Below, in pieces: positions 27,453 to 55,083 of a DNA stretch of 63,727 bases. The stretch's first letter is position 1. Every line of letters begins with the position of its first letter. A program made the translations under genes and the position numbers. The notes beneath the pieces are model-generated. The model searched no databases, was not told where the DNA came from, and saw only the letters and a list, made by a program, of their open reading frames with translations. The stretch spans positions 1 through 63,727 of the IMG/VR virus record IMGVR_UViG_3300033153_006754; one strand, given 5' to 3'. The DNA comes from a virus (lineage: Duplodnaviria > Caudoviricetes).

Positions 27453-28844
27453 CTAGATGCCAGATACGAACCCGGTCGGAAGTGCTCCCGTGCCCATCTG
27501 CCACTGCAGGGACAGGTTGTCCTCCCAGTCGTAGTTCTTGGCGATCCTGACGTTCTTGGCCTGGATCACGGCCTCGCCCTGGTTGTCCAGCGCAAGGGCG
27601 TACCTTTCCCGGATCTTCGTCGACCTGATGTCACGGCGCGGGTCGTCCCACGATTCCGTGACAGGGTCTTCGTCAACCACGAGGATTCCGAGCTCGTTCC
27701 TGTCGGCCATGATGATGTCTGTCAGAGCGTTCGTTCCATCGAAATAGATGAACGGGGACACGACTACCGCCAATGGCGCGGGGAAGAGAGACGGAACCGG
27801 AGTCATCATTGAGGACTGAGGATCCAGGGTCTGGCCCGGAGTGCCCTCGAGTCCCTGTGATGGCCCCATGTTGACCCCACCAGCGTTCCCGAGTGGGCCC
27901 TGCCCTGGCTGTCCCTGATGGGACTGGAAGAGCTGGCCGTTGTTCATGAACCCGAAGTTGCGCATCGTGCCATCGCGGGCAAAGATGAGCCAACCCATGG
28001 GGTTCATCAGGAGGACGTTGGGGATGAAGCCGACGTTCAAGAGGTCAGCGTACATCACGAAGAGGTCATCCAGGGTGATGGTCTTGTTGAGCAGACCGTC
28101 GATGTGCCGTCCCGTGGTTGCCCCGTGAAGGGATCCGGACGGTGACGCGTTATCGAACGCGATACGGCCTTCGGAGTTGATCAGGTTGAAGATTTTGACT
28201 TCCTTGTGACGAGCGAGTGCACGGCTTGCGGCCTGCAGGTGCATCGTCATGACGTCGAACATGGAGTACCTGATCATTTCGTCGGTGATACGGACCTTGA
28301 GACCGGATTTCCCGATCTTTGCAGTCACGTAACCAGCGAATTCCATGCTCTGTTCCGGATACTCGCCCCCAGGCGGAATGTCTTCGGCCCACATCCCTCC
28401 ACCAGCTGCAGGAAACGTGATCGTCTCCCCAGCAGAGAAGTTGATGCGGCGCATCAAAGTCGTTCCGATGAGAACGGGCTCGGCGGCCTCACGCACGATC
28501 CGGGTGATGACTTTGGGCAGCAGAATGACTGCAGAGGATGTTTCGATAGCATCCTTCAGCCCTGCGCCTTCCATCTTCTGTGCGTTCTCGTCCAGGACCT
28601 GGCAAAGCTTGTCATAGCCTACCCGGTGCGAGTCACGTTCGTGACCCTCCTGGTACTGATAACGCTCCTCCGGATCGAGCCACCCGTTGTTACGCCAGAC
28701 CATGTCGGTCAATGCCAACTGGTCTTCGACGCTGGGGCCACCGCTGCCGAGGGTCTTGGGATCTACCCCAAGCTCCTCTAGCCTGGAATCGACAAGCTCA
28801 CGGATTGACTTGTCGAGGCTTTCGGCTACGGTTCCTTGTGGCAT
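27453..28844 (-). CDS. Major capsid protein (HK97-like)
   Basis: 463 aa; LLPKVITRIVREAAEP, AEDIPPGGEYPE, KSGLKVRITDEMI, DIRSTKIRERY; canonical position; RBS GGAGG. Confidence 0.9.
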   Translation of the reverse strand: MPQGTVAESLDKSIRELVDSRLEELGVDPKTLGSGGPSVEDQLALTDMVWRNNGWLDPEERYQYQEGHERDSHRVGYDKLCQVLDENAQKMEGAGLKDAIETSSAVILLPKVITRIVREAAEPVLIGTTLMRRINFSAGETITFPAAGGGMWAEDIPPGGEYPEQSMEFAGYVTAKIGKSGLKVRITDEMIRYSMFDVMTMHLQAASRALARHKEVKIFNLINSEGRIAFDNASPSGSLHGATTGRHIDGLLNKTITLDDLFVMYADLLNVGFIPNVLLMNPMGWLIFARDGTMRNFGFMNNGQLFQSHQGQPGQGPLGNAGGVNMGPSQGLEGTPGQTLDPQSSMMTPVPSLFPAPLAVVVSPFIYFDGTNALTDIIMADRNELGILVVDEDPVTESWDDPRRDIRSTKIRERYALALDNQGEAVIQAKNVRIAKNYDWEDNLSLQWQMGTGALPTGFVSGI

Positions 28845-42500: not shown

Positions 42501-43750
42501 GCGTTGTGGTCAACGATCTGCCTCTTCCGACTCTGCCAGGGCAGAGCGGCAGCAGCACCACCACGAACCAGTTGGAGGTTAAGATTGGCGCGCCGATCGC
42601 CGATGAGCACGCCTACATGCCTGTTATAACTTCGTGAGCTAGGATCAAATACAAGCCGGAGGCTCTGCTGACGCTCGATCAGGTGCTCGAAGTACTCAGC
42701 ACCCTGCTTGCCAGCAAATTGATCCTCAGCTATACGCCCGGACATGCCCGGGTGCTCAACTTCAGGAGCATCGATGCCAGCCAGCCTGATGCTGACCGGC
42801 TTCTTGAACATGTTCATCAAGCCGCGGCGCTTGACAGTGATGGAGTCAGCATCGCTGACCTTAACGTGGTAGTTCTTCAGGTCGACCACGCCCATCCAGG
42901 CACTGCGGTTCAGCCCGGCTGTCTTGAGCCAGGAGCCCCTGGCCATGTCGTACTCACCGCGATGGAACAGCCGCCTGTTGGCGGACATCATCGCGCTGGT
43001 CCAGGTCTCGTGGCTCTTCTCAAGACTCTTGTAGCTTACACCGTCAATATCCGGGTATCGGATGTCGAGTGAGGACCTGTAGGCTGATAGTTCGTTGAAT
43101 CCTCTGGTGACAGGGTTCCCGAACCTGCGTCCGGACCCAAAGTCAGTCAGAGCTCGAGCTACACCACGGCCGCAGGGCCCGAAGCTGATGCCGTCAACCT
43201 CAAGGTAAGGCGAGTCACTGGGATCTCTAACACCCTTGAGCCTGGCCTGCTTCTCTGGTAGAGCAGCATCAGCTATGGTCATCCCGGCCAGAACCATGGC
43301 TGCAGCACGCAACTTCGGATGCCTGTTAAACCAGGGCTTATACTGGGTCCTCCAGGCGTCAGATATCTCGGCGCCGGCACGACTGTATATCTTCCTGAGT
43401 GTCTCTGGCTGACTGGCTAATGCGCGAGCTGTCGTCTTGGCACCAACGCGCTGGGCACTTATCTTGCTGGATAATGTTTTATCCAGAGATCTAAGTCTGT
43501 GGGATTCAGACCTGGTGACTTCGGTTGCCTTTTGGACTGGGTTTTTGATTGCAGGAGTTGGCTGTGTAGCAGCACGCAGATCCTGACGCATCTTCCTGAA
43601 GTACGTCTTCATTGCAGAAGTTAGACGCGCAGGGGAAGGTTCGGTACTTTGACTCTGGCGTGCCTTCTTTAAGTACTCCCTCACTGCCTTGACAACGCCT
43701 GGGCTGGGCTTTTGATAATCAGCCAACTGCCACTTCCTGCTCTTTAGCAC
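39569..43750 (-). CDS. Large basic virion/ejection-like protein with thermonuclease (SNase) domain
   Basis: 1393 aa; VSDADSI..IRLAGIDAPE..SYNRHVG..NLQLVRGGAA..KIGMW; C-terminal Gly zipper. Confidence 0.75.
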   Translation of the reverse strand: MLKSRKWQLADYQKPSPGVVKAVREYLKKARQSQSTEPSPARLTSAMKTYFRKMRQDLRAATQPTPAIKNPVQKATEVTRSESHRLRSLDKTLSSKISAQRVGAKTTARALASQPETLRKIYSRAGAEISDAWRTQYKPWFNRHPKLRAAAMVLAGMTIADAALPEKQARLKGVRDPSDSPYLEVDGISFGPCGRGVARALTDFGSGRRFGNPVTRGFNELSAYRSSLDIRYPDIDGVSYKSLEKSHETWTSAMMSANRRLFHRGEYDMARGSWLKTAGLNRSAWMGVVDLKNYHVKVSDADSITVKRRGLMNMFKKPVSIRLAGIDAPEVEHPGMSGRIAEDQFAGKQGAEYFEHLIERQQSLRLVFDPSSRSYNRHVGVLIGDRRANLNLQLVRGGAAAALPWQSRKRQIVDHNAYASAEALAASGKIGMWQSKGWQMHRAMGLIAGKRVTNTTMTSLDRITRSAALSDWYGLVQRAHDSSRSPWTPDEVQDMYQVGSAYRAETMGRLNKRTKNAGFLPGIRGPVTPWSIVGSGITPTQVRGGNVSDFSSGRAKITAVQSAVNERYGSSPIDSRTIWNTTVNNLNATSVPIAVTSPMLPSAPVSADPLGAGTRPDLTQAVNHYPGESGTRPDLHRTTPVNMGKGVGPIYTGTGELYVHSSTTGKYRVIDTPKRTLAAYPDAKARDVIFQTYKDGGHGFYVNDVDAYLEQVDDAAQAQHAKPPQSPTRKPTPTTTAKPPKAIKVVDRSIPARNVPVPPSSGMKSSSSRYHGIGPAAGIGALVLTGVAIGTWAMLKGDEQGIGERMMDTPRHPREFMGMRPHGDFVASHKVGAWAQHQNMGVAAEEAASAHKREALKHLGLQGVVMGLERYLAPNKHPMLEAWDSFVKAGHLLDPAETLTPNQLRESKVAGKKVKAGLKAMKYDQMSRHAWMRRRKMSTSFITNIASVADTKLGWFDKILKKFSWESIKEAPGKLWDYIESKQSKLTKDASGNVKDWFKSIATKSKHWTYGVDANEIQRLKKMGKLNKLVGAKKILAWDQFTHALSENVKNLVTNPQGFMAKVTGVKDIITNFGRLEEMALAYRVIDKKSLLAKKEVKNVFTNIGKRLKDINKNSPLFTAHVDKMRRLTKVGSSISKFGKSGVGRALGKIPYMNVAWGAIEGYSLMDQYENATKGFITETAAGTARMAAFALIRPGLWLAAGAKLAAAGSALGPAGTIGGAILGFVGSAVINLVGSFVLGEVAATAVRYPTAAVLGARKRRNPDPSMSMDPAMLYQMGGIQGMRGPVNQFNRFHGMDPARPDMTPFGGAYNPIQGQDIDSKTLQITESKRKITSSPKAGRPISMFTPTFGLVNNVLWNQRRGSRVRSVIERYSGMNSVPKLDRNRSRMAARAA

Positions 43751-44739: not shown

Positions 44740-44981
44740 AGCAACCGCCCACTTGGTGAGATAATGGTACCTGCTTCAGCATCGAACTTGAACTTGACAA
44801 GCTCGAGGTCGTGCTTACATAACTTCAGGGCGCACCTGAAGTAGTCACAGTCTTCCTTGTCCTTGAAGTAGTCGATCTGACGAAACCTGGTCTCCATGCC
44901 TGGGACCTCATGCTCCACCTCAAGTACGAACTCCACGTCGGTGAGAGCGGGGCCCCAGTCAAGATCAGCTTTTGTTGTCAA
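44700..44981 (-). CDS. Hypothetical protein
   Basis: 93 aa; overlaps both neighbours. Confidence 0.45.
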   Translation of the reverse strand: MTTKADLDWGPALTDVEFVLEVEHEVPGMETRFRQIDYFKDKEDCDYFRCALKLCKHDLELVKFKFDAEAGTIISPSGRLLWPRKNPKKNPKT

Positions 44982-45330
44982 GACCGAGCTCCTTCAGCTT
45001 GGCATCCATAAGCGCCTTGAGGCCAGCTGCCTCGAGATCCATGCCAGTGTTCTTCAAGGTCTTGCGTACGATGGCCCTGGCGTTCTCAACACCTGAGGTA
45101 TCCACCTTGATCTGGTTGAGGGCGCTCGTGGCATGCCCCAGGAGATCGTCGGTCTGCTTGCCGGCTTTTGCCAGATCAGCGGCGAGGCCCTTGAAGTTGC
45201 CGGCCTTGACCTTCTGGATGATGCCCCAGACAGTCATGCCCAGAGCTGTAACTGAGGCAATGATGCCAATGATGAGGTAGATGTTCTGAAGAGCAGTTGA
45301 TGCTTCGAGAATCATGGTGTCCTCCGTCAA
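44965..45330 (-). CDS. Holin-like single-TM protein
   Basis: N-terminal IYLIIGIIASVTALGMTVWGII followed by charged helical tail. Confidence 0.5.
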   Translation of the reverse strand: MTEDTMILEASTALQNIYLIIGIIASVTALGMTVWGIIQKVKAGNFKGLAADLAKAGKQTDDLLGHATSALNQIKVDTSGVENARAIVRKTLKNTGMDLEAAGLKALMDAKLKELGLDNKS

Positions 45331-45720: not shown

Positions 45721-45748
45721 ATGGTACACGGGCTGTGTGAGATGTCAA
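45721..45748 (-). promoter_or_regulatory. Sigma70-like promoter
   Basis: TTGACA-N16-TACCAT. Confidence 0.6.
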
Positions 45749-45820
45749 GCCCCCGGCCGGCATCGAACCAGCGACCTACGGTTTACAAAACCGTCGCTCT
45801 CCCAACTGAGCTACGGAGGC
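45748..45820 (-). tRNA. tRNA-Thr(TGT)
   Basis: Cloverleaf, loop TT-TGT-AA, no CCA. Confidence 0.9.
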
Positions 45821-45823
45821 ATA

Positions 45824-45897
45824 TGGTGGGGCTGGAAGGAATTGAACCCTCGACATTGAGGTTCGTAGCCTCACGTCCCGAGTCCACGGGCAACCCC
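45824..45897 (-). tRNA. tRNA-Arg(ACG), atypical D-arm
   Basis: Loop CT-ACG-AA, CCA. Confidence 0.8.
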
Positions 45898-45901
45898 GAT
45901 C

Positions 45902-45977
45902 TGGTACGCCCGGAGGGATTCGAACCCCCAACAACCGGTTTAGAAAGCCGGTACCCATCCAATTGGGACTCGAGCGC
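45902..45977 (-). tRNA. tRNA-Arg(TCT)
   Basis: Loop TT-TCT-AA, CCA. Confidence 0.88.
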
Positions 45978-46053
45978 TGGTATCCCCGGAAGGACTCGAA
46001 CCTTCATTCCAGGATTAGGAATCCTGTGTCCTGTCCGTTTGGACGACGGAGAC
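45978..46053 (-). tRNA. tRNA-Arg(CCT)
   Basis: Loop TT-CCT-AA, CCA. Confidence 0.9.
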
Positions 46054-46129
46054 TGGCACTGCGAGAAGGACTCGAACCTTCAACCGCCAGGTTCGGAACC
46101 TGGTGCTCTATCCGTTGAGCTACCGCAGT
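46054..46129 (-). tRNA. tRNA-Arg(CCG)
   Basis: Loop TT-CCG-AA, CCA. Confidence 0.9.
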
Positions 46130-46200
46130 TGGCAGGCCGTCGAGGTGTCGATCCCCGCTGGCGGGGGTTGGAGTCCCACCTGATCGCCGGATCACAGCCT
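46130..46200 (-). tRNA. tRNA-Trp(CCA), truncated D-arm
   Basis: AGG..CCT-G-CCA acceptor, loop CT-CCA-AC, T-loop ATCGACA. Confidence 0.75.
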
Positions 46201-46203
46201 ACA

Positions 46204-46275
46204 TAGATCTCCGAGGAGTCGAACCCACAACCTACTGGCTCAAAACCAGCCGTGCTACCATTACACCAGAGATCC
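46204..46275 (-). tRNA. tRNA-Gln(TTG), weak T-stem
   Basis: Loop TT-TTG-AG; T-stem GTGGG/CCTCG mismatched; no CCA. Confidence 0.65.
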
Positions 46276-46351
46276 TGGTAGGGGTGGAAGGGTTCGAACC
46301 TTCGACCTCTTGAGTCAGAGTCAAGCGTTCTACCAGTTGAACTACACCCCT
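46276..46351 (-). tRNA. tRNA-Gln(CTG)
   Basis: Loop CT-CTG-AC, CCA. Confidence 0.9.
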
Positions 46352-46355
46352 ATTT

Positions 46356-46425
46356 GCCGGCGTTCTGCCAGTTAAACTATGCCAAGGTTTCCCTCGGCAG
46401 TCGGGTTCGAACCGACACTTCCGGC
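46356..46425 (-). ncRNA. Circularly permuted tRNA mimic (YrlA-like T/acceptor/D module)
   Basis: GCCGG-AAGT-GTCGG TTCGAAC CCGAC-TGCCGAGG GAAA CCTTGGCA-TA-GTTT AACTGGCA GAAC-G-CCGGC. Confidence 0.8.
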
Positions 46426-46427
46426 GC

Positions 46428-46506
46428 TGGTCGGGCCAGGAGGATTCGAACCTCCGGTCTCCTGCTCCCGAAGCAGGCGGCAACGGCCAAGCTTGCCCAT
46501 GGCCCG
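46428..46506 (-). tRNA. tRNA-Pro(CGG)
   Basis: Loop TT-CGG-GA, CCA. Confidence 0.9.
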
Positions 46507-46584
46507 TGGTCGGGCGAGGAGGATTCGAACCTCCGATTTCCGGTCCCCCAGACCGGCGTCCACTCCAAACTGGACCGCCGCCCG
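46507..46584 (-). tRNA. tRNA-Pro(GGG)
   Basis: Loop CT-GGG-GG, CCA. Confidence 0.9.
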
Positions 46585-46588
46585 ATAA

Positions 46589-46667
46589 TGGTCGGGGTGA
46601 CTGGATTCGAACCAGCGAATCTCCTGCTCCCAAAGCAGGCGCCCTGGCCAGGCTGGGCTACACCCCG
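46589..46667 (-). tRNA. tRNA-Pro(TGG)
   Basis: Loop TT-TGG-GA, CCA. Confidence 0.9.
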
Positions 46668-46669
46668 TT

Positions 46670-46745
46670 TGGCTCCCCAGGTGGGGTTCGAACCCACAAC
46701 CTCCCGGTTAACGGCCGGGCGCTCTTCCACATGAGCTTCCGAGGA
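46670..46745 (-). tRNA. tRNA-Asn(GTT), C33
   Basis: Loop CC-GTT-AA, CCA. Confidence 0.88.
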
Positions 46746-46749
46746 TCAC

Positions 46750-46823
46750 TGGAGCCACCGGGTGGAATCGAACCACCATTTCATCCTTACCAAGGACGTG
46801 TTCTGCCGTTTAACTACGGCGGC
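46750..46823 (-). tRNA. tRNA-Thr(GGT)
   Basis: Loop TT-GGT-AA, CCA. Confidence 0.9.
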
Positions 46824-46826
46824 TTA

Positions 46827-46890
46827 TGGAGCGGGGACTGAAGCCGGTGCCAGCCCCAGAGATTAAGTCCCAGGATCGAGGGAGCCCCGC
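46827..46890 (-). ncRNA. tRNA-like element with Gly-type acceptor and CCA but no normal D/T arms
   Basis: GCGGGG...CCCCGC-T-CCA, 64 nt, central CT-TAA-TC loop. Confidence 0.55.
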
Positions 46891-46964
46891 TGGAGCCATC
46901 GGCCAGAATCGAACTGGCGTCTGCTGAGTACGAAACAGCTATTCTGCCCCTGAACTACGATGAC
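46891..46964 (-). tRNA. tRNA-Thr(CGT)
   Basis: Loop TT-CGT-AC, CCA. Confidence 0.88.
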
Positions 46965-46974
46965 AGTAGGAAGG

Positions 46975-47061
46975 TGGCGGAAGACGTAGGAGTCGAACCT
47001 AATGCCTCTCGACACGATCCGGTTAGCAACCGGTCCCCAGTCCACACCGAGTTCATCTTCC
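46975..47061 (-). tRNA. tRNA-Ser(GCT)
   Basis: Loop TT-GCT-AA, long variable arm, G-CCA. Confidence 0.85.
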
Positions 47062-47138
47062 TGGAGACCCCGGTCGGACTCGAACCGACTAAGGTAGGGT
47101 TTGCAATCCTACGCCTCGTCCACTTCGGCATCAGGGCC
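47062..47138 (-). tRNA. tRNA-Cys(GCA)
   Basis: Loop TT-GCA-AA, U73, CCA. Confidence 0.88.
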
Positions 47139-47228
47139 TGGCGGTGGGCGGAGGAGTCGAACCCCTGTCATATTTCAGACCGCACGGCTTTCGAGGCCGC
47201 CCCCAGTCCAACACCGGGGTCACCCACC
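47139..47228 (-). tRNA. tRNA-Ser(CGA)
   Basis: Loop CT-CGA-AA, long variable arm, G-CCA. Confidence 0.85.
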
Positions 47229-47236
47229 ATAACAAA

Positions 47237-47323
47237 CGGCAGGGCTGGGATTCGAACCCAGGAGACCTCTCAGTCTACACGCTTTCCAAGCGAGCGCTTT
47301 CAGCCGGACTCAGCCACCCTGCC
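47237..47323 (-). tRNA. tRNA-Ser(GGA)
   Basis: Loop TT-GGA-AA, long variable arm, no CCA. Confidence 0.88.
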
Positions 47324-47530
47324 AGTAGGGTAATAGGTAGGAGAGGCCTCGTCTGGCCTCCCTTCTCCGAGTGCCTTATGATCGGCAACACGAAGAGGGG
47401 AAACTTCGCGCATTGGGCCAGCGCCGGGTCGTTCGACCCAGCTGCTGTCTCCTTCGTTGGAGTGTTGTGCGAAGCATCGAGAACCTCTTATTGCGTACCG
47501 GCGCTAAAGGCCGGCGATGAATATATTCTC

Positions 47531-47558
47531 AGTGTACAGATGCCGAGAACGAAGTCAA
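47531..47558 (-). promoter_or_regulatory. Sigma70-like promoter
   Basis: TTGACT-N16-TACACT. Confidence 0.7.
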
Positions 47559-47566
47559 GTACTTTC

Positions 47567-47643
47567 TGAGGTGAACGGAGGGATTCGAACCCTCTCCTCG
47601 AGAGTCACAATCTCGTATGCTGACCACTTACACCACATTCAAC
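47567..47643 (-). tRNA. tRNA-His(GTG)
   Basis: Loop TT-GTG-AC, G-1:C73, ends TCA. Confidence 0.88.
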
Positions 47644-47718
47644 TGGTGACCCAGGCAGGAGTCGAACCTGCGTTAAGGAGTTATAAGCTCCCCGTTCTAG
47701 CCGTTGAACTACTGGGCC
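47644..47718 (-). tRNA. tRNA-Ile(TAT)
   Basis: Loop CT-TAT-AA, A73, CCA. Confidence 0.88.
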
Positions 47719-47761
47719 GCAACGTTCAGCTGCGGCTTGATATTCGTTCGTGTTCCATCTA

Positions 47762-47833
47762 TAGCGGGGAGGGGAATCGAACCCCCGAGACCAAGGTTAT
47801 GAGCCCCGGCTAAGCACCAACGCTTGCCCCGCG
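47762..47833 (-). tRNA. Initiator-type tRNA-Met(CAT), atypical
   Basis: CGCGGGG start with C1:U72 mismatch, loop CT-CAT-AA, compact D-arm. Confidence 0.8.
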
Positions 47834-47840
47834 TCACTGA

Positions 47841-47913
47841 TGTCCTCGCTGGGATTCGAACCCAGACTCGACTGTATTTAAGACAGCTGGCTTTGCCGTT
47901 AGCCTACGAGGAC
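47841..47913 (-). tRNA. tRNA with TAA (Leu) anticodon and short variable loop
   Basis: Loop CT-TAA-AT, 5-nt variable region, A73. Confidence 0.82.
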
Positions 47914-47926
47914 AGCTGATTCCTGC

Positions 47927-48010
47927 TGGTACCGGAGACAGGATTCGAACCTGCAAGCCTTTCGGCGGTGCGTTCTGAGCGCACTGCGTTTACCATTTCA
48001 CCACTCCGGC
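47927..48010 (-). tRNA. tRNA-Leu(CAG)
   Basis: Loop CT-CAG-AA, long variable arm, CCA. Confidence 0.9.
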
Positions 48011-48095
48011 TGGTGCCCAGGGTGGGAGTCGAACCCACAAGCCGCAAGGCACATGGCTCTCAACCATGCGTGTTTACCTGTTTCACCACCTGGAC
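48011..48095 (-). tRNA. tRNA-Leu(GAG)
   Basis: Loop TT-GAG-AG, long variable arm, CCA. Confidence 0.9.
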
Positions 48096-48099
48096 ATTC

Positions 48100-48184
48100 T
48101 GGTACGGAAGGTGAGATTCGAACTCACACGCCTTGCGGCACAGAGGTTTGAGCTCTGCGCGTCTACCTGTTCCGCCACTCCCGC
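48100..48184 (-). tRNA. tRNA-Leu(CAA)
   Basis: Loop CT-CAA-AC, long variable arm, CCA. Confidence 0.9.
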
Positions 48185-48187
48185 TAC

Positions 48188-48259
48188 TACGGCCACGGAG
48201 AGTTGAACTCCGGTCTCCGGGGTGAAAACCCGGTATCCTTGCCACTGGACGACAGCCGC
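48188..48259 (-). tRNA. tRNA-Glu(TTC)
   Basis: Loop TT-TTC-AC, no CCA. Confidence 0.85.
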
Positions 48260-48262
48260 TCA

Positions 48263-48334
48263 TACCCCTACAGAGAGTCGAACTCTGGTCTGCTGGATGA
48301 GAACCAGCTATCCTTGCCACTAGACGATAGGGGC
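48263..48334 (-). tRNA. tRNA-Glu(CTC)
   Basis: Loop TT-CTC-AT, no CCA. Confidence 0.88.
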
Positions 48335-48412
48335 TGGTAGGCCCGGTCGGACTCGAACCGACATGACCCCTGCGTGTAAAACAGGTGCTTGGCCAAGTTA
48401 AGCTACGGACCT
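48335..48412 (-). tRNA. tRNA-Val(TAC)
   Basis: Loop TT-TAC-AC, CCA. Confidence 0.9.
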
Positions 48413-48477
48413 ATGCGGAAGCGTCACCGGACTACGCACGTGTGGAAGCACGGAACGTAGCACCCGGCTCAGCTTCC

Positions 48478-48553
48478 TGGCGGGACTCACGGGGATCGAA
48501 CCCGCAACCTCCGGATCGACAGTCCGGCGCTCTTCCAATTGAGCTTCAGTCCC
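48478..48553 (-). tRNA. tRNA-Asp(GTC)
   Basis: Loop CT-GTC-GA, G-CCA. Confidence 0.9.
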
Positions 48554-48558
48554 GTTTC

Positions 48559-48634
48559 TGGTGGATAACGGTGGGACTCGAACCCACAACTCCTGGGTGC
48601 AAACCAAGTGTGTTCCCAATTACACCACGCTCCC
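48559..48634 (-). tRNA. tRNA-Ala(TGC) with bulged acceptor
   Basis: Loop TT-TGC-AC, G3:U70, extra A in 3' acceptor strand, CCA. Confidence 0.8.
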
Positions 48635-48711
48635 TGGTGGACCCTGTCAGAGTCGAACTGACCGCCTCCTGCGTGCAAAACAGGCGCTCTACCCAGATGA
48701 GCTAAGGGCCC
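48635..48711 (-). tRNA. tRNA-Ala(TGC)
   Basis: Loop TT-TGC-AC, G3:U70, CCA. Confidence 0.9.
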
Positions 48712-48722
48712 ATATGTAGTAT

Positions 48723-48797
48723 TGGTAGCCCCGGAGGGAGTTGAACCCTTCGTTTGCGGTTTATCAGACCGCTGTTCTGCCGTTGAACTACGGAGCT
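48723..48797 (-). tRNA. tRNA-Ile(GAT)
   Basis: Loop CT-GAT-AA, CCA. Confidence 0.9.
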
Positions 48798-49021
48798 TCT
48801 TAGTTGAGGTCTCGAGGAAGTTTGGAGAAGACTTGCGGGAGACCTCAGCGTCGGTTACGCCGCGATCTCCATAATATCCAGAACGGCGGCGCCCACGACG
48901 ATGTCGTGTTCTAGGTGAAGTCGTATGTGTAACTTCTGCCGCTGCACTTCTGGTCTCCAGTTATAGGGGACGCCGGCACGGGGTCTTTACAGCCCGTACC
49001 GACGTCAGGTTCGATCCGTAT

Positions 49022-49309
49022 TTAGTGTACGGATGCCAGCACAAAAGTCAAGTTCAATCTGCCAACTTTTACTGTCTCGCCGTCAATCACCTTCCGGAAC
49101 AGCCGTGGCTTGTTCTTCTTCACTTGGCTGGTGCTGGGGAAGAGGCCCAGCTCAACTAGAGCTCGAGCTAAGAATGACTCGTCTGTTCGCACAATCATAT
49201 CTGCCTTCGGTAAGGTGTTGTTGTTAAGGATCCCCTTCACGAGCATGATCGCTTCGCGTACGGGGAGCTCCCATGATGCAACTACTGCTGGCTGTAAGAT
49301 CTCAATCAT
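49022..49309 (-). CDS. Small protein with S4-like RNA-binding motif
   Basis: 95 aa; LARALVELGLFPSTSQVKK..TVKVGR resembles the TyrRS C-terminal S4 domain. Confidence 0.55.
   Translation of the reverse strand: MIEILQPAVVASWELPVREAIMLVKGILNNNTLPKADMIVRTDESFLARALVELGLFPSTSQVKKNKPRLFRKVIDGETVKVGRLNLTFVLASVH
49024..49051 (-). promoter_or_regulatory. Sigma70-like promoter
   Basis: TTGACT-N16-TACACT. Confidence 0.7.
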
Positions 49310-49386
49310 TGGTGTGGGTACAGGGATTCGAACCCTGACTGCCAGCTTGGAAGACTGGCGTGCTGGCCGTTGAACACTACACCCAC
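49310..49386 (-). tRNA. tRNA-Gly(TCC) with U2:A71 and A73
   Basis: Loop CT-TCC-AA; GTGGGTG/TACCCAC-A-CCA. Confidence 0.85.
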
Positions 49387-49410
49387 AAATTCAAGGGACT
49401 GCATTAGATC

Positions 49411-49620
49411 TCATTCAACCACTTCCAGTATAGCCTCGAGCCCTGATCCTTCTGGGCTGAGCTTGACTAAAGGCCTGGACCTTATGACCTCAGCAATCTC
49501 ATCAGTGATATCGGGACCACCGATCTCACAAGTACCGTCCGGTCCTGTCTTGGCCGTGATGAAACCGTCCTTGAGCTTGATGAAGAACGTTGCCATTGGA
49601 GTGCCTATGGAAACTTTCAT
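49411..49620 (-). CDS. Hypothetical 69-aa protein inside tRNA array
   Basis: ORF filling the gap between tRNA blocks. Confidence 0.5.
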   Translation of the reverse strand: MKVSIGTPMATFFIKLKDGFITAKTGPDGTCEIGGPDITDEIAEVIRSRPLVKLSPEGSGLEAILEVVE

Positions 49621-49669
49621 TAGAGGCCCTCAAAAAGGTTATTGATCTATTGGACATTATATCAACTAA

Positions 49670-49743
49670 TGCCCCCGGTAGGATTCGAACCTACATCTAT
49701 CCGGTTAAAAGCCGGATGTTCTACTCCATTGAACTACAGAGGC
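49670..49743 (-). tRNA. tRNA-Lys(TTT)
   Basis: Loop CT-TTT-AA, no CCA. Confidence 0.9.
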
Positions 49744-49745
49744 TC

Positions 49746-49820
49746 TGGTGGGCCGAAAGAGATTTGAACTCTTATCTAACGGATTAAGAATCCGTCGCTC
49801 TACCATTGAGCTATCGACCC
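49746..49820 (-). tRNA. tRNA-Lys(CTT)
   Basis: Loop TT-CTT-AA, CCA. Confidence 0.9.
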
Positions 49821-49824
49821 ATGC

Positions 49825-49898
49825 TGATGCGGGCAGATGGAGTCGAACCACCGTCGACTGTGATCAGCAGTCTGCTCTACCACTGAGCTATACCTCAC
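49825..49898 (-). tRNA. Atypical tRNA with GAT anticodon (possible pseudo-tRNA)
   Basis: Loop CT-GAT-CA (C37), 3-nt variable loop, bulged acceptor, ends TCA. Confidence 0.6.
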
Positions 49899-49982
49899 TG
49901 GTGCGCCGGGTTGGAGTCGAACCAACACAGTACTAGACGGGTGGGTTACAGCCACTTGAGCTCACCAATGCTCAGCCGACAC
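49899..49982 (-). tRNA. tRNA-Tyr(GTA)
   Basis: Loop CT-GTA-AC, long variable arm, CCA. Confidence 0.88.
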
Positions 49983-50056
49983 TGGTGGGCCGAGATGGAA
50001 TCGAACCATCATTACCGCATCTTCAGTGCGGCGCTCTACCACTGAGCTACCGACCC
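49983..50056 (-). tRNA. tRNA-Phe(GAA)
   Basis: Loop CT-GAA-GA, CCA. Confidence 0.9.
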
Positions 50057-50059
50057 AGA

Positions 50060-50130
50060 AGCGACTGGAGAGAATCGAACTCTCGTGTCCAGCTTGGGAA
50101 GCTGACGCTTTACCACTAAGCTACAATCGC
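50060..50130 (-). tRNA. tRNA-Gly(CCC)
   Basis: Loop TT-CCC-AA, canonical GCG..CGC-U, no CCA. Confidence 0.9.
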
Positions 50131-50136
50131 GTTAGT

Positions 50137-50210
50137 TGGTGTGGCTGGCGAGAATCGAACTCGCATTGCCTGCGTGGCGGGCAGGTATCTTACCGTTGGA
50201 TCACAACCAC
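50137..50210 (-). tRNA. tRNA-Gly(GCC) with U2:A71, A73 and C33
   Basis: Loop CC-GCC-AC; GTGGTTG/CAGCCAC-A-CCA. Confidence 0.83.
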
Positions 50211-50348: not shown

Positions 50349-50930
50349 TTAGGATAAAAGACTCAACTCCATGGAGCAGTGCTCATCGGGACCCAGCTTA
50401 TCAAGATCTTCAACGCACTGAACCTTGAACCACTCGTGGACGTATGCGATCTTCCAACAGCCATTGGCAGCAATGAGGTTGAACACAGTATCACCGAAGT
50501 CATTGGCTGAGCGAGTGTGTATGTAGAGGCGGGACGTCATCCTGCTAAGGTCAGTGAGTATGGAGTCCAGGTCATGATGCTCGAGGTGTTGCAGCACCAG
50601 AGATACCAGAACTGAGTCAAAGGTCATAGTCCGGACCGCTTCCCAGTTGCTCTCCAGCACAACGTTCGAAGGTATTGAACCCAGCCCCTCTTCCACCAGA
50701 CTCAGCATGCCTTCAAAGTCGTACCCAACGACCTCATCTGCTCTAGCCGCAAGCTCCTTCAGGTTCCGGCCTACTCCACACCCGAAGTCCAGCACACGAT
50801 TGCCGAAGGACGCACGTTGCATCAATCCAATGTCCGCCGGCAATGGTCCTTCTCTAGATCCCCATCCTGATAGAACGCGCTCCCTAGCTGACTTCAAGTC
50901 TCCAGGATCACGCCACTTGTCATATCTCAT
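50349..50930 (-). CDS. Class I SAM-dependent methyltransferase
   Basis: 193 aa; RVLDFGCGVGR, FDSV..VLQHL. Confidence 0.88.
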   Translation of the reverse strand: MRYDKWRDPGDLKSARERVLSGWGSREGPLPADIGLMQRASFGNRVLDFGCGVGRNLKELAARADEVVGYDFEGMLSLVEEGLGSIPSNVVLESNWEAVRTMTFDSVLVSLVLQHLEHHDLDSILTDLSRMTSRLYIHTRSANDFGDTVFNLIAANGCWKIAYVHEWFKVQCVEDLDKLGPDEHCSMELSLLS

Positions 50931-51184
50931 GGTCTGTACTCGTACCCAGATAGCTTGGAATCACGCTCAACCACCAGCGTCTCTTCGCAGTATTCGCCAC
51001 CAGGTGGGACCTCTTCGGCGTGCTTCATGAGGAACTCCTCACTGATCTTGATCTGTATGCCACGCTTTGACTTGCCGGGGATGGTGCTCTTCACCCAGAT
51101 CCTGACAACGTCCCGGCTTCGATCGAACTCTGCGTCCAGCTTCAGTTGCGGTGTCAGTTGAATGCTGCCTGGGCCGATGTTCAT
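50927..51184 (-). CDS. 85-aa protein containing two reordered MCP-like segments
   Basis: KRGIQIKISEEFL and AEEVPPGGEYCEET match MCP KSGLKVRITDEMI and AEDIPPGGEYPEQS. Confidence 0.7.
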   Translation of the reverse strand: MNIGPGSIQLTPQLKLDAEFDRSRDVVRIWVKSTIPGKSKRGIQIKISEEFLMKHAEEVPPGGEYCEETLVVERDSKLSGYEYRP

Positions 51185-51244
51185 TTGAGTGCCCTTCCAA
51201 AAGTATGGAGTGGAGGTTCTTTACCTCAGTGATGTGGTAGAGCT

Positions 51245-52189
51245 TCATGGTCGCACTGCAAAGACGTCTATCTGGAACGGGCGGTTATCAGGCAGATCAC
51301 CAATGGCCTGCATCTCATTGTCACCAGTGATAGCTAAGGGTTTGTATCCAAGATCCCTGAGCATGTTCATGTACTGGTTGGGACTGCAGTTTGACACCTT
51401 ACGCAGCTGGTCTCGGTGGACCTCGGTAATGATGGGCGGGTACTTGTGGCGCTTGAGGAACTGTCGGCCACCTTCAATGACCAATGGCTCAGCGCCCTCA
51501 ACATCCATCTTGATGAAGCTGACTCCTTGACCCTGATCCTCAATCTGAAGAGCGTCGAGCGGATACACCTGAACGGTAGCGGCCGTGTGGTTCGGAGGTG
51601 GCTCTGTACCCAACTCCGCCAGATAGGCACCACCATGGTTGATGGTGTCCGGGGCGTAGATGAGGTTGAGCTTTGATTCCGAAGCACCGACCGCCTCGTT
51701 CAGGCAACAGACGTCACCCATGTCTGGATGGTCCCTACGCAGGTTCTCCCTGACCGTACGATCCAGGAGTGAGTAGACGTGAGGCATTGGCTCGTAGGAG
51801 AGCACAGTGCCTTTTGATCCAACCATCCTGGCCATCTTGATCGAGAAGTAACCAACGTTGGCTCCGATATCCAGTACGTGAGTTCCGGGCTGTATCCACT
51901 TCTTCATCAGGTTGAGGACGTGAGGCTCATACTTGCCCTGGAGGATCCCGCGACCAATGAACTGGTCGTTGAGGTCGATCCAGAACCGGTCCCCATCGGT
52001 ATCCTCAACCATGACGATACTGTTCCCAGCTTCCTTGCTCTTCTCCTTGAACTCAGTGGACGCCATCAGGGAGTCCCTCAGGGTCTTCATGTCGCCGCAT
52101 CCCATCTTCTCTTCCATCACGGCAGAGTTTTCGGGCATGCGTTCAAAGAGGACCTTGTAGGCCCAGATGACGTCTTGCTGAGTGAGCAT
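51245..52189 (-). CDS. FkbM-family methyltransferase
   Basis: 314 aa; LDIGANVGY, YEP, IKMDVEGAE; short N-terminal AYK.LF.R.PE helical domain. Confidence 0.9.
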   Translation of the reverse strand: MLTQQDVIWAYKVLFERMPENSAVMEEKMGCGDMKTLRDSLMASTEFKEKSKEAGNSIVMVEDTDGDRFWIDLNDQFIGRGILQGKYEPHVLNLMKKWIQPGTHVLDIGANVGYFSIKMARMVGSKGTVLSYEPMPHVYSLLDRTVRENLRRDHPDMGDVCCLNEAVGASESKLNLIYAPDTINHGGAYLAELGTEPPPNHTAATVQVYPLDALQIEDQGQGVSFIKMDVEGAEPLVIEGGRQFLKRHKYPPIITEVHRDQLRKVSNCSPNQYMNMLRDLGYKPLAITGDNEMQAIGDLPDNRPFQIDVFAVRP

Positions 52190-52923
52190 TATGATTCCAC
52201 CACTCGGACCATATGATGGTCTTCTTCAAGAGGCTCACCGGTGAGGGCCTCAATGACCTCCTTGGAGAAGGTGTACTCACCTTTCTTCAGGTTATACGTT
52301 TGGCCCTTATTGTGTTGGTACACTTTGTGGTAACCCCTGCCCTTGATCCACCCGACCACGTCTTCAGCATGGTAGGTGTAGTTGTCCTCAGTGGTGATGT
52401 CGTCGATTGAAACTCCGCCACCTCTCTGGATAATATCCACGTTCCGGATGACGAGCCAGGCGTCGACGCCGTACTCATCGATTGACTGGAGGACGATCCC
52501 GCCGAGCTTGATGGGGAGGTGGGGCCACATGCTCTCCTCATTGACGATGGAGAGGATGGTGCCGACATACCCACCAATGTTCCAGTCAGTGTTGCCCCAG
52601 GAGATGCCTTGGACGAAAGGAGCTGGGTTGATGATCCTGGGTTGGTCCCCGCGCTCTGGACTGACCAGGAGGGCCTCAGTGTCGACGCCACAGAAGGACC
52701 ATCTGGTGTGCTTGCCAGGAGGCTTCTCGAACTCCTGGTCCTCCTTGAGGTCCTTCCCCCAGTCGAAGGGCTTCTTGGTAACGATCTTGCTGCGCTCTGA
52801 CCTGAGCTTGTACAGAACTCTGGATGCGTCCTTGATGCGACGATTGACATCGTCCATCTTGGCCTTATTGTCTGGGTCGGCCGCTTCGGGGCCTCGGTCC
52901 GGGCTTGAAGGGTTCTCCGTCAT
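52189..52923 (-). CDS. Orphan tail-tube homolog lacking the long beta-hairpin
   Basis: Start at MTENPSS (RBS AGGAGG), 244 aa; 26/50 identity to the tube C-terminal segment. Confidence 0.78.
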   Translation of the reverse strand: MTENPSSPDRGPEAADPDNKAKMDDVNRRIKDASRVLYKLRSERSKIVTKKPFDWGKDLKEDQEFEKPPGKHTRWSFCGVDTEALLVSPERGDQPRIINPAPFVQGISWGNTDWNIGGYVGTILSIVNEESMWPHLPIKLGGIVLQSIDEYGVDAWLVIRNVDIIQRGGGVSIDDITTEDNYTYHAEDVVGWIKGRGYHKVYQHNKGQTYNLKKGEYTFSKEVIEALTGEPLEEDHHMVRVVES

Positions 52924-53089
52924 TGTACTTCCTCCTGAGTCGTTTGATCTCCTTCTCCAGTCCAGCGGACATAAGAGAAGTGAGCGTGACACTTTGGTCG
53001 TGCTCGTGATATTGCAGGAACGCTACTGCGGCCCTGGCCTCCGCTAGGAGAGCATCATCGACGTTATGTGTGGTTCGAACTTTTGACAT
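52865..53089 (-). CDS. Ribbon-helix-helix / ParB C-terminal-like DNA-binding protein
   Basis: 74 aa; TTHNVDDALLAEARAA..LEKEIKRLRRKYNDGEPF..GRP. Confidence 0.6.
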   Translation of the reverse strand: MSKVRTTHNVDDALLAEARAAVAFLQYHEHDQSVTLTSLMSAGLEKEIKRLRRKYNDGEPFKPGPRPRSGRPRQ

Positions 53090-53286
53090 AGTTCAACCTG
53101 TTCGTTGTTATTGAAGGCGATTGCTTCAGAGTATCCTCTGGGGCTCATGAGTATCGTGTTAGGCTGGAACTGCTGCTTGGTCAGCATATCGTACATACGA
53201 TCCAGGTCAGCAAGCTGCATGCTGGCAGACTTGTTCTGTCTCAGGGCCAGATCCACAACATGGTGTGTAAGAAACAAGGGGTTCAT
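53044..53286 (-). CDS. 80-aa MCP-fragment protein
   Basis: 13/30 identity to MCP ITLDDLFVMYADLLNVGFIPNVLLMNPMGW. Confidence 0.72.
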   Translation of the reverse strand: MNPLFLTHHVVDLALRQNKSASMQLADLDRMYDMLTKQQFQPNTILMSPRGYSEAIAFNNNEQVELCQKFEPHITSMMLS

Positions 53287-53534
53287 TAGTAGCCTGCAGC
53301 CTCTCTACCGACGTCGGTGCAGAACCACCCGTAGCCCATCCATTGTGGATCGTATATCCACTTAACCAGGCCGGCCTTCTTCATCCGTCTCAGGGTAGAC
53401 AGCACAAGTCTGGCTTTCCTTTGGAGCCTGCGCTTTCGGGCCCATGCGGTCCGAGCCAAGTGTCCAACACGAACTGGTGTTGCCTGCTTGGCCAAAGCTG
53501 TTAGCACAGTAAGGTCCTTGCCTTGTAACTTCAT
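53286..53534 (-). CDS. Basic winged-helix-like protein
   Basis: 82 aa; LRRMKKAGLVKW..GW.CTDVGR. Confidence 0.55.
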   Translation of the reverse strand: MKLQGKDLTVLTALAKQATPVRVGHLARTAWARKRRLQRKARLVLSTLRRMKKAGLVKWIYDPQWMGYGWFCTDVGREAAGY

Positions 53535-53743
53535 TCTCTCACACTCACAGATTCAGGAAACTTCGGTGTCAAGATCCCACTAGCCTTGATGTCGACCCTG
53601 GGATCGTTCCATTCCCCAGGTATGGCTCCAGTACCCATCTGCCATCTGATGCCGCTCACTGTGACATCCATTGGAGGCCCACCACAGCCATCGCAGCTGT
53701 TGAGACCGGAGTTGAACCTGCCACAGTATTTACATTGCCACAT
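53531..53743 (-). CDS. Zn-ribbon fused to MCP C-terminal fragments
   Basis: 70 aa; WQCKYC..CDGC then WQMGTGAIP and WNDPRVDIK. Confidence 0.75.
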   Translation of the reverse strand: MWQCKYCGRFNSGLNSCDGCGGPPMDVTVSGIRWQMGTGAIPGEWNDPRVDIKASGILTPKFPESVSVRE

Positions 53744-54051
53744 TAGAAGCCCTTGATATCAAATGTTGACTGATAGCTCCTGAGGCCCTTGCCTCTCATC
53801 CTCACAAGGATCTTACCGTCGTAGTCTGTGCACCAGTTCTTGAGATCGCCGAGCTTCCCATTGAATAGTGGGCGACCATGCTGGTTGCCGTCGTTGCACA
53901 CAAAGATACCAACTTGGGGATCAGTGGTGCATTCACCACCGCCATATATGTAGTCTTCAGAGCGAAGACTCCCCAGAACATGTGCCAGGCGTGCACCGCG
54001 GTTGGTTCCCTGGGAGAGTGTGAAGGCTGCTGTGTTCGGTATGTGATCCAT
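53743..54051 (-). CDS. Hypothetical protein, probably leaderless (MDHIPN..)
   Basis: ATG 7 nt after a TATACT -10; the same frame is open up to 54525. Confidence 0.55.
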   Translation of the reverse strand: MDHIPNTAAFTLSQGTNRGARLAHVLGSLRSEDYIYGGGECTTDPQVGIFVCNDGNQHGRPLFNGKLGDLKNWCTDYDGKILVRMRGKGLRSYQSTFDIKGF

Positions 54052-54058
54052 ACACAGG

Positions 54059-54086
54059 AGTATATGGAATAATAGCATAATGGCAA
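54059..54086 (-). promoter_or_regulatory. Sigma70-like promoter
   Basis: TTGCCA-N16-TATACT with AT-rich upstream sequence. Confidence 0.65.
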
Positions 54087-54532
54087 GTATTATTTTGAAG
54101 AATTCTTTAAATGACCCGGGCCCCGACTGAGGGGGCCCTTGGGGTCCTAACCATGCACCAATAGCATGTGGGCCCGCTTGCGAGGGCCCTGGATGAACAA
54201 ACCTGTTCACCTGTCCTCTACTTGGGTTGCATGTCTCAGGAAATCTGCTAAGCGAATCAAACAGGATTTCGGGTAGGGGCTTTGATGGCCACAAGGCTCG
54301 CACTTCACGCGCGTGGGCGCAACGAGCGTCCTTGTTGTCACGACGGCGCCGAACCCGTTCATCGGGATGCCACTTGTAATCGCGGTGGTGTCCGTCCCAG
54401 TCCCGCCAGGGCCATACAGTCCAGTGTGTAGGACGACTGTCATCAATCCAGACTGTGTTTGCTGCGGCGGAGTCAGTTGCCTGAGTCCAGTCTGTGCCGG
54501 AAGTGCGGTCGCAATCAACATCCATCAGGCTA

Positions 54533-54561
54533 ATATTACCTTGAAGATTTCAGGGAGTCAA
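54533..54561 (-). promoter_or_regulatory. Sigma70-like promoter
   Basis: TTGACT-N17-TAATAT; ATG 7 nt downstream. Confidence 0.55.
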
Positions 54562-54771: not shown

Positions 54772-55083
54772 TCAAGCCTTGTTGGTTCCTTCCACGCCAC
54801 GGTCCTGGCGACCCTTGGTACGGTCTTCCAGCCAGTGGATGGCTTCCTGGAACTTGGTGATGGCCAGTGCATTCTCCCTGCACTTGAACGGGCCCTTCTG
54901 GAAACCCTCGAGCCGGTCGATGAGCACCTGTGCCACCAACTCGATAGTGGTCCCGTTCTCGTCATGCTCCTTGATGGGCCCGCACTGGAACTTGATCTTG
55001 ATGTACTCCTCTTCGATGAAAGACATGGTGCCATCAAGAGACTCCTGTGCCTCCAGGTCCAATTTCTCCAGGTTCTCGCTCAT
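54772..55083 (-). CDS. tad1: Tad1/Acb2-family immune-signal sponge (anti-Thoeris/anti-CBASS)
   Basis: 103 aa; IKFQCGP..NG..IDRLEGFQKGPFKCRENALAITKFQEAIHWL..R..RGVEGT; RBS GGAG. Confidence 0.88.
   Translation of the reverse strand: MSENLEKLDLEAQESLDGTMSFIEEEYIKIKFQCGPIKEHDENGTTIELVAQVLIDRLEGFQKGPFKCRENALAITKFQEAIHWLEDRTKGRQDRGVEGTNKA

Follow-up and report, generated by a model that had tools for sequence, protein, structure and literature searches.

Why would a phage carry, outside its structural module and beside a homologue of the anti-defence protein Tad1, small open reading frames (ORFs) that resemble pieces of its own capsid and tail tube? The question is raised by a locus in IMG/VR record IMGVR_UViG_3300033153_006754, which was analysed over its complete length of 63,727 bases (the window; CheckV completeness 31%) and is classed here as a fragment of a jumbo phage, distant kin of Bacillus phage 0305phi8-36. 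Up to about 58 kb, almost every gene is on the minus strand, including the four ORFs to which a sequence-only reading of the window had drawn attention. All four, here called A to D, were found in place on that strand, and they are given below after the two virion genes that they resemble.

27453-28844, minus strand: major capsid protein (MCP), 463 amino acids (aa), matching Pfam Phage_capsid_4 (6e-17) and PHROG major head protein (1e-21); parent of the motifs in A, C and D
21293-22000, minus strand: tail tube protein (tube1), 235 aa, right after the sheath gene, with a KLEB27-3 homologue annotated as tail tube; parent of B
53531-53743, minus strand: D, 70 aa, MCP-like, with a CxxC...CxxC N-terminus
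53044-53286, minus strand: C, 80 aa, MCP-like, between the small ORFs E and F
52189-52923, minus strand: B, 244 aa, diverged tail-tube paralogue
50927-51184, minus strand: A, 85 aa, MCP-like, member of a four-member family

The analysis supports the view that A-D are accessory ORFs composed of segments of this phage's MCP and tube that have diverged and, in part, been permuted. The sequence-only reading had taken them for decoys of virion proteins or inhibitors of related phages; its descriptive half stands, most strongly for A, because there the MCP-like motifs form the conserved core of a protein family, while its functional half is retained below as a tentative proposal. For A and B, the conclusion that the sequence is derived from, or constrained like, MCP or tube is reached at the family level. 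The observation itself is real and unusual, and in kind it belongs both with accessory genes derived from structural genes and with counter-defence mimicry.

Capsid-like stretches in A, C and D

The MCP is of the HK97 type according to its Pfam and PHROG matches, scoring 63.2 bits against the Pfam capsid family (cut-off 27), and its closest cultured relatives are found in Moorella phage MTATph1 (37% identity), Bacillus phage 0305phi8-36 (32%) and also Acinetobacter phage ME3 (eight records matched). A PDB sequence search returned no relative for the MCP profile and none for the tube. Comparisons were also made with a related phage sequence, G002, whose MCP is 75% identical to that of the window and which shares synteny with it as far as about 45 kb, structural genes included.

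Taken singly, the BLAST matches of A, C and D to the MCP are weak (E 0.003, 0.005 and 0.011 in a database of 530 ORFs), and in an all-against-all comparison of the window ORFs other chance pairs reach the same level. Jointly they are far more telling. For each of the three the best non-self match is the MCP, which is not so for the interleaved E and F, and in a six-frame tblastn search of the window with the MCP they are the top three non-self matches (E 0.05, 0.15 and 0.20; the next 0.79). In Smith-Waterman comparisons the real score was reached by one of 2000 shuffles for A and by none of 2000 for C or D, compared with P values of 0.56 for E and 0.96 for F; with the two best segments summed, A, C and D each stayed above all of 1000 shuffles (E 0.27, F 0.90). 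A profile of the MCP family, built from ten MCPs with 43-79% identity, was searched against 960 ORFs (530 from the window, 427 from G002 and three homologues of A). After two MCPs, it ranked C (1.7e-4), the A homologues P0007 (0.041), P0008 (0.051) and P0002 (0.18), an antisense ORF in the MCP gene of G002 (0.24), A (0.42) and D (0.71), with all others at 1.9 or above. Scored with the hidden Markov model (HMM) of the MCP family, shuffles reached the real score in none of 3000 cases for A and for C, and in one of 3000 for D. Taken together, the matches of A, C and D to the MCP are not accidental; as measured by these comparisons the resemblance is jointly far beyond chance and weak singly. The self-similarity that the sequence-only reading expected from computed alignment is thus present, clearly for B (E 2e-13) and collectively for A, C and D.

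The strongest case is A, in which residues 56-70 (nucleotides 50975-51019) are identical to MCP 153-167 at nine of 15 positions and residues 40-52 (nucleotides 51029-51067) resemble MCP 179-191, the order of the two being swapped relative to the MCP. A third segment that had been proposed (A 73-82 against MCP 69-78) had to be given up, its score of 30 being at noise level and the stretch not being kept in P0007 or P0008. A search of 5.8 billion proteins returned a single homologue of A (P0002, 88 aa, 65% identity), and when 1.84 billion representatives were searched with a profile, P0007 (122 aa, E 9e-7) and P0008 (126 aa, E 5.5e-5) joined it, giving a family of four with 30-67% identity; P0002, P0007 and P0008 are encoded on contigs of 2655, 1046 and 3046 bases, respectively. 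The four-way alignment holds 16 invariant columns, start methionine excluded, and 13 of these fall within the two MCP-like stretches, which occupy 28 of the 85 residues (binomial P 1e-4). The invariant residues concerned are K40, G42, I45, I47, E49, E50 and L52 in the first stretch and P60, G62, G63, E64, Y65 and E67 in the second, corresponding to a core of K-x-G-x-x-I-x-I-x-E-E-x-L followed by P-x-G-G-E-Y-x-E. In the MCP the order of the two motifs is inverted (AEDIPPGGEYPE at 153-164, then GKSGLKVRITDEMI at 178-191), and at the core of these motifs the ten MCPs show little or no variation: G159, E161 and Y162 are invariant in all ten, as are G62, E64 and Y65 in the A family.

The reverse search gave the same picture. 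With an A-family profile as query and 3,964 sequences as target (the 10 MCPs, 3000 shuffled MCPs and 954 other ORFs), eight of the ten MCPs scored 15.0-22.1 bits and the other two, one of them partial, 5.4 and 5.0, against a background of 7.5 bits for the best shuffled MCP and 4.4 for the best of the other ORFs. HMMER aligned two or three pieces in reversed order, profile positions 55-69 to MCP 153-167 and 38-53 to MCP 177-192, with a weak third piece joining profile positions 9-34 to MCP about 396-415, and a comparison of the A and MCP families by hhalign recovered the first piece with 80% probability and an E value of 1.3e-5. Within the matched stretches the amino acids are kept although third codon positions agree no better than at random, and the likeness is therefore held at the protein level.

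The A family had no match in Pfam, PHROGs or PDB sequence searches, the ESM Atlas model of A (predicted local distance difference test score, pLDDT, 0.55) gave no usable structural match, and a locus search for the family (A2) returned nothing in viral contigs or metagenome contigs. The sole match among genome contigs, at 4093-5805 of L020, was rejected as a chance motif match, EEVPAGGEY inside a 570-aa ORF of a bacterial metagenome-assembled genome, so that the nine-residue motif alone is undiagnostic. By eye, this 570-aa ORF reads as a methionyl-tRNA synthetase.

C and D resemble other portions of the capsid protein. The three ORFs do match separate parts of the MCP, as had been claimed (A 153-191, C 246-309, D 399-456), and a permuted segment order, which had been claimed for all three, was found in A and D. 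It does not hold for C, residues 8-73 of which are collinear with MCP 246-309 with few gaps (core residues 22-52, nucleotides 53131-53223, identical to MCP 255-285 at 13 of 31 positions); C is therefore a plain, unreshuffled fragment. It is about equally similar to all ten MCPs (scores 42-64). Its neighbours on the two sides, E and F, abut directly in G002, a pattern that suits an insertion. In D, the motif IRWQMGTGAIP (residues 32-42, nucleotides 53618-53650; eight of 11 identical to MCP 446-456) precedes WNDPRVDIKASGI (residues 45-57, nucleotides 53573-53611; seven of 13 identical to MCP 399-411), which is the swapped order. The first motif scores 54 against the phage's own MCP and 46, 43 and 41 against the MCPs of three relatives, while the two-segment sum is 97 for the own MCP and 95 for L014.

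Two details of arrangement may be recorded here. Right before the first motif of D stands VSGI, with which the MCP also ends; it looks as though the MCP end were joined to a point 18 residues upstream. Furthermore, the MCP-like segments descend strictly along the operon (D 446-456 and 399-411, C 246-309, A 179-191 and 153-167); a mechanistic meaning of this order was considered and set aside, since no mechanism was found and the order has a chance of about 1 in 24.

Database searches placed A, C and D in no known family: scans up to E 0.1-1 reported no Pfam capsid family, the structural families of PHROG and Pfam gave no match, and tblastn of the three against 50,697 phage records gave nothing significant and no capsid genes. 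Searching the island with blastn against large databases recovered only short stretches, 2-3% of the query, at the end with the array of transfer RNA (tRNA) genes. An ORF at 44965-45330 was tried as a fifth member and rejected, the faint likeness of its C-terminus, LKALMDAKLKELGLDNKS, to MCP 14-31 having a shuffle P of only 0.01. This ORF encodes 121 aa with a hydrophobic N-terminal stretch and is conserved in G002.

B and the tail-tube relatives

The fourth ORF resembles the tail tube, for which two further genes of the structural module have to be named.

22026-23408, minus strand: sheath gene, directly preceding the tail tube gene
20459-21235, minus strand: second tube paralogue, within the structural module and paralogous to 21293-22000

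Residues 127-192 of B (nucleotides 52348-52545) are 44% identical to tube residues 144-209 (E 2e-13), so that the tube match proposed for 52189-52923 is confirmed, the partner being the gene that follows the sheath gene; the match to the second tube paralogue is fainter (E 0.009). Judging from these alignments, B is a diverged tail-tube paralogue. Two similar genes occur in G002, and the three proteins (the B-likes) retain the tube core motifs SFxGVD, LQGxS, NEYGH and GxGxSIDDIT, are without the roughly 65-residue insertion of tube1 and carry N-terminal extensions of 75-95 residues, that of B being about 75 residues long. The TREKAPLYTMGSPDPRAFSRGKR segment of tube1, about 20 residues that presumably have a role in tube ring contacts, is gapped in B and in one of the G002 proteins (B1), the latter of which has a further match to tube residues 16-107.

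A maximum-likelihood tree of the seven tube and B-like sequences groups the three B-likes in a single clade (support 95/95), with terminal branches of 0.85-2.1 versus 0-0.19 for tube1, which corresponds to evolution about 5-10 times faster than that of tube1; the other G002 protein (g2_B2) is a long branch and its placement is unsure. The clade is retained in two phages with intact frames. Some 31 kb separate B itself from the sheath and tube genes; it lies outside the tail module, among small accessory ORFs and methyltransferases. An ESM Atlas model of B (pLDDT 0.45) had Tube, Hcp and gp19 clusters as neighbours at template modelling (TM) scores below 0.5, a lead only, and a search for B relatives in viral contigs found none.

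Duplication of tube genes is routine in this phage group, tandem paralogues being present in all five complete genomes of cultured relatives, with 2-4 per structural module. B shares core motifs with these tandem paralogues of the 0305phi8-36-like jumbo phages, but the B-likes differ from them in their distance of about 31 kb, their own long-branch clade, the lost segment and the N-terminal extension. One distant tube copy was found in Bacillus phage vB_BceM_WH1, namely gp277, a hypothetical protein of 173 aa (L026 3264-3785; record positions 215763-216284). Its first 48 residues are 60% identical to the WH1 tube protein gp101 (E 2e-17) and the remainder is unrelated; the gene lies in a non-structural region, among small genes near those for SSB and RecA. 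gp277 has no similarity to B, and although it resembles B in being an accessory-region ORF with a piece of the phage's own tube, that piece is the N-terminal one, which B lacks. Accessory ORFs with a piece of their own tube thus recur in this phage group.

Possible roles of the four ORFs

What, then, might such ORFs do? The likeliest of the readings weighed here, which is put forward tentatively, is that A, B, C and D are putative non-assembling mimics of unassembled capsid and tube subunits, that is, accessory genes built from pieces of the phage's own virion genes in a variable region by a tRNA array. Because MCP 150-187 would lie just before the long helix of the HK97 fold, which we take from the general topology of that fold to begin at about residue 188, it should be the E-loop hairpin, and A would be a free-standing, circularly permuted E-loop module; tandem duplication of a 40-residue block followed by trimming could produce its motif order. 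The mimics would expose surfaces that are conserved in MCP and tube monomers but would lack what polymerisation requires, and would therefore compete for whatever binds these surfaces. The leading guess for the partner is a host immune sensor triggered by capsid or tube proteins, which might be bound without the oligomeric context required for its activation. Host sensors are favoured because Tad1 adjoins, because the B-likes evolve fast and because published work on DSR2, Thoeris and capsid triggers fits. A setting of conflict is supported by Tad1 upstream, the fast B-like clade and the chain of overlapping genes, and gp277 of WH1 counts in favour as an independent parallel. The narrower proposal is that these are putative trigger decoys made from own virion genes, with a permuted E-loop in the A family, other capsid pieces in C and D and a tube core unable to polymerise in the B family, which would be expressed from an anti-defence operon beside Tad1 and would block the capsid- and tube-binding sites of ThsB-, CapRel- or DSR2-like sensors without activating them. 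It is rather unlikely as it stands; if true, trigger decoys would be a general counter-defence principle not yet described.

Several results weigh against this proposal. Past its syntenic part, G002 holds the two B-likes and homologues of E and F, and A, C and D are absent from it, also in the search with the MCP profile. In the five complete cultured-relative genomes the A family has no match and the MCP profile finds the MCP gene alone; when the same search is applied to the window itself it detects C (E 0.001) and misses A and D, and the cultured-relative negative is therefore weak, covering C-like fragments only. C and D are represented in the protein database by identical or 99% identical copies only, so that selection on them cannot be shown, and their standing as candidate functional genes is unproven. 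The sole variant of D, P0003, carries P48H, a change in a motif proline that is nearly invariant in MCPs. A codon-usage score trained on the long structural genes makes the annotated frame clearly the best for B (0.27), A (0.19) and C (0.08), but leaves it ambiguous for D, where -0.12 compares with -0.14 and -0.15 in two antisense frames. Under looser gap costs, significance is kept by C (0 of 3000 shuffles) and lost by A (11 of 3000) and by D (22 of 3000). Finally, a mimic of a trigger may equally well activate the sensor. Nor are the four genes a conserved, co-occurring system: the idea of a system, put forward by the sequence-only reading, is unsupported by G002, with its B-likes, E and F and without A, C and D, and by the restriction of C and D to near-identical copies.

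An alternative that we regard as a serious possibility, though not a probable one, is that the ORFs are by-products of recombination, in which pieces of structural genes were captured in a hypervariable region by illegitimate recombination or partial duplication and are now either non-functional or engaged in an unrelated role. This explanation is strongest for C and D, which are known only from this phage and near-identical copies. C has the look of a piece of about 200 nucleotides inserted between two genes that abut in G002, and it is as distant from each of the ten MCPs as an old or foreign fragment would be; D combines an ambiguous coding signal with a variant altered at the motif proline. 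The lack of A, C and D in G002 fits as well, and gp277 of WH1 is likewise a chimera of a tube fragment and unrelated sequence. What such debris would not readily account for is that the MCP-like motifs are the invariant core of the A family down to 30% identity, that the B-likes persist as a clade with intact frames in two phages, that all four frames are open within a chain of overlapping start and stop codons, and that amino-acid similarity endures despite saturated synonymous sites.

It is also conceivable, if unlikely, that the fragments are assembly modulators or poison subunits, which would bind MCP or tube via a beta-sheet edge or the E-loop docking site and either delay the phage's own assembly or block that of co-infecting relatives. 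The A family and the MCP family keep the same residues (G62/E64/Y65 and G159/E161/Y162), as would suit a shared structural contact, and B keeps the tube core without one tube segment. However, the motifs are nearly identical to those of the own MCP, so that an inhibitor would hit its own phage too, and the genes lie beside Tad1 and methyltransferases rather than in the structural module. Satellites redirect assembly with full-length capsid homologues or external scaffolds. The T4 vertex protein gp24 and Ccm of SaPIbov5 are full-length HK97-fold derivatives of MCPs that assemble into shells; they are alike to A, C and D in being MCP-derived proteins put to a second purpose, in satellites as part of a conflict over assembly, and differ in that A, C and D are of 70-85 aa, comprise pieces of 10-60 residues and are permuted in the case of A and D.

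Still less probable is that A-D are ordinary minor virion or morphogenesis proteins (decoration, cement or tube-initiator-like) whose genes happen to lie outside the structural module. Jumbo phages commonly scatter their structural genes, and this group has tandem tube paralogues in its structural modules. On the other side, the evolutionary rate of the B-likes is about 5-10 times that of tube1, and A, C and D are without a structural match in PHROG or Pfam and are all missing from G002 in spite of its structural-gene synteny and its 75% identical MCP. Chance resemblance of short motifs can be set aside as very improbable indeed: the single BLAST matches are at the level of chance pairs and tblastn against the phage records found no capsid genes, but three neighbouring ORFs all match one protein, and none of 3000 shuffled MCPs reaches 8 bits with the A-family profile where eight of ten real MCPs reach 15-22.

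To return to the reading of the four ORFs as non-assembling mimics, a short internal stretch of capsid can suffice for recognition by host defence, as with the Gol peptide of T4 and the Lit protease. Gol differs from A-D in being part of the capsid gene, rather than a separate phage gene that would counter the defence, and in activating that defence. In the available portions of the papers cited here, capsid proteins are described as triggers of Thoeris, CapRel and other systems (PMC12578639, PMC13728456), Thoeris cyclases as binding major capsid proteins (PMC12578639) and DSR2 as activated solely by monomeric tube protein (PMC10981675); in one screen of capsid triggers covered by a review, the need to oligomerise was the sole common feature (PMC13728456). 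According to the same portions, DSAD1 inhibits DSR2 allosterically (PMC10981675) and Tad3-Tad7 block the active site of ThsB (PMC13728456). These inhibitors are likewise small accessory phage proteins from anti-defence regions, as A-D are beside Tad1, and act on the sensor rather than on the signal; in the descriptions at hand they are not presented as derived from the trigger, which sets them apart from A-D. T7 Ocr, a DNA mimic, and ICP1 Gp145, an antitoxin mimic, are comparable in that they imitate what the defence recognises (PMC12409349, PMC13728456, as far as these texts are available). Whereas they imitate DNA or a host antitoxin, A-D would imitate the phage's own structural protein by using its own sequence.

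Within the accessible parts of the literature searched, including a comparison of jumbo phages (PMC7824862), no phage genes built from capsid fragments are described, and the reported phage answers to capsid and tube sensors are only escape mutations, signal sponges and active-site or allosteric inhibitors. Capsid and tail-tube proteins, according to the same partial sources, trigger many bacterial defences, with Thoeris, CapRel, CBASS escape mutants and DSR2 as examples, and a conserved family of small proteins with a rearranged capsid core next to Tad1 raises the question of whether phages imitate the trigger. Even with another function, the locus shows that new accessory genes are made from fragments of structural genes, with gp277 of WH1 as a second example.

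The surrounding island

Besides A-D, the island comprises the following genes, given in order of transcription.

54772-55113, minus strand: Tad1 homologue, first in transcription order
53743-54525, minus strand: X260, 260 aa, of no known family, heading the chain of overlapping genes
53286-53534, minus strand: E, 82 aa, conserved in G002
52865-53089, minus strand: F, 74 aa, with sub-threshold ribbon-helix-helix-type matches, conserved in G002
51245-52189, minus strand: FkbM-type methyltransferase (MT1), between B and A, Pfam Methyltransf_21 3e-17
50349-50930, minus strand: class I S-adenosylmethionine (SAM) methyltransferase (MT2), the start of which overlaps the stop codon of A

The product of 54772-55113 matches Tad1 in PDB entry 8kbb_A over residues 32-112 (E 5.3e-20, 74.8 bits), four further distinct Tad1 chains at about 2e-13 together with 7uav_A, which is of identical length and deposited under another name, and phrog_2428 at 6e-28; against Pfam Acb2_Tad1_hairpin it reaches 24.8 bits (E 2.5e-5), below the cut-off of 27. 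By these matches it is a clear homologue of Tad1 (Thoeris anti-defence 1), about 1 kb upstream of the MCP- and tube-like ORFs, and its earlier identification is upheld by the match to 8kbb_A. The label of orphan antitoxin that had been given to F fares less well, since no curated Pfam threshold is reached (VapB_antitoxin 13.3 bits against 23.4, CB_ParB_C 21.5 against 27); no toxin family was seen beside it in Pfam and PHROG scans made for other purposes, none of which was aimed at toxins. The small genes E and F are conserved as a pair; in G002 they lie at 49429-49728 and 49214-49432 and overlap by 4 nucleotides.

Translational coupling within the island, as proposed, agrees with real start/stop overlaps at seven junctions of the chain (X260/D, D/E, E/C, C/F, F/B, B/MT1 and A/MT2), and an AGGAGG site precedes the ATG of B at 52923. 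Promoter-like and terminator-like matches point to an operon start near 54561; being consensus matches, which may not apply to the host of this phage, they are weak evidence.

In a single overlapping chain, the capsid- and tube-derived ORFs are interspersed with two methyltransferase genes, one of the FkbM type and one of the class I SAM type; G001-G003 lack the FkbM methyltransferase. The tRNA array follows immediately downstream of the island, with 35 genes on the minus strand at 45748-50210 covering 19 amino-acid specificities (no Trp); the last 17.6 kb of G002 contain no tRNA gene. Elsewhere in the window, the regions 2866-18544 and 39569-43750 hold four very long minus-strand ORFs of 2123, 1619, 1482 and 1393 aa, all of which have counterparts in G002 with 40-55% identity, that of the 1393-aa ORF extending over a 445-aa stretch only.

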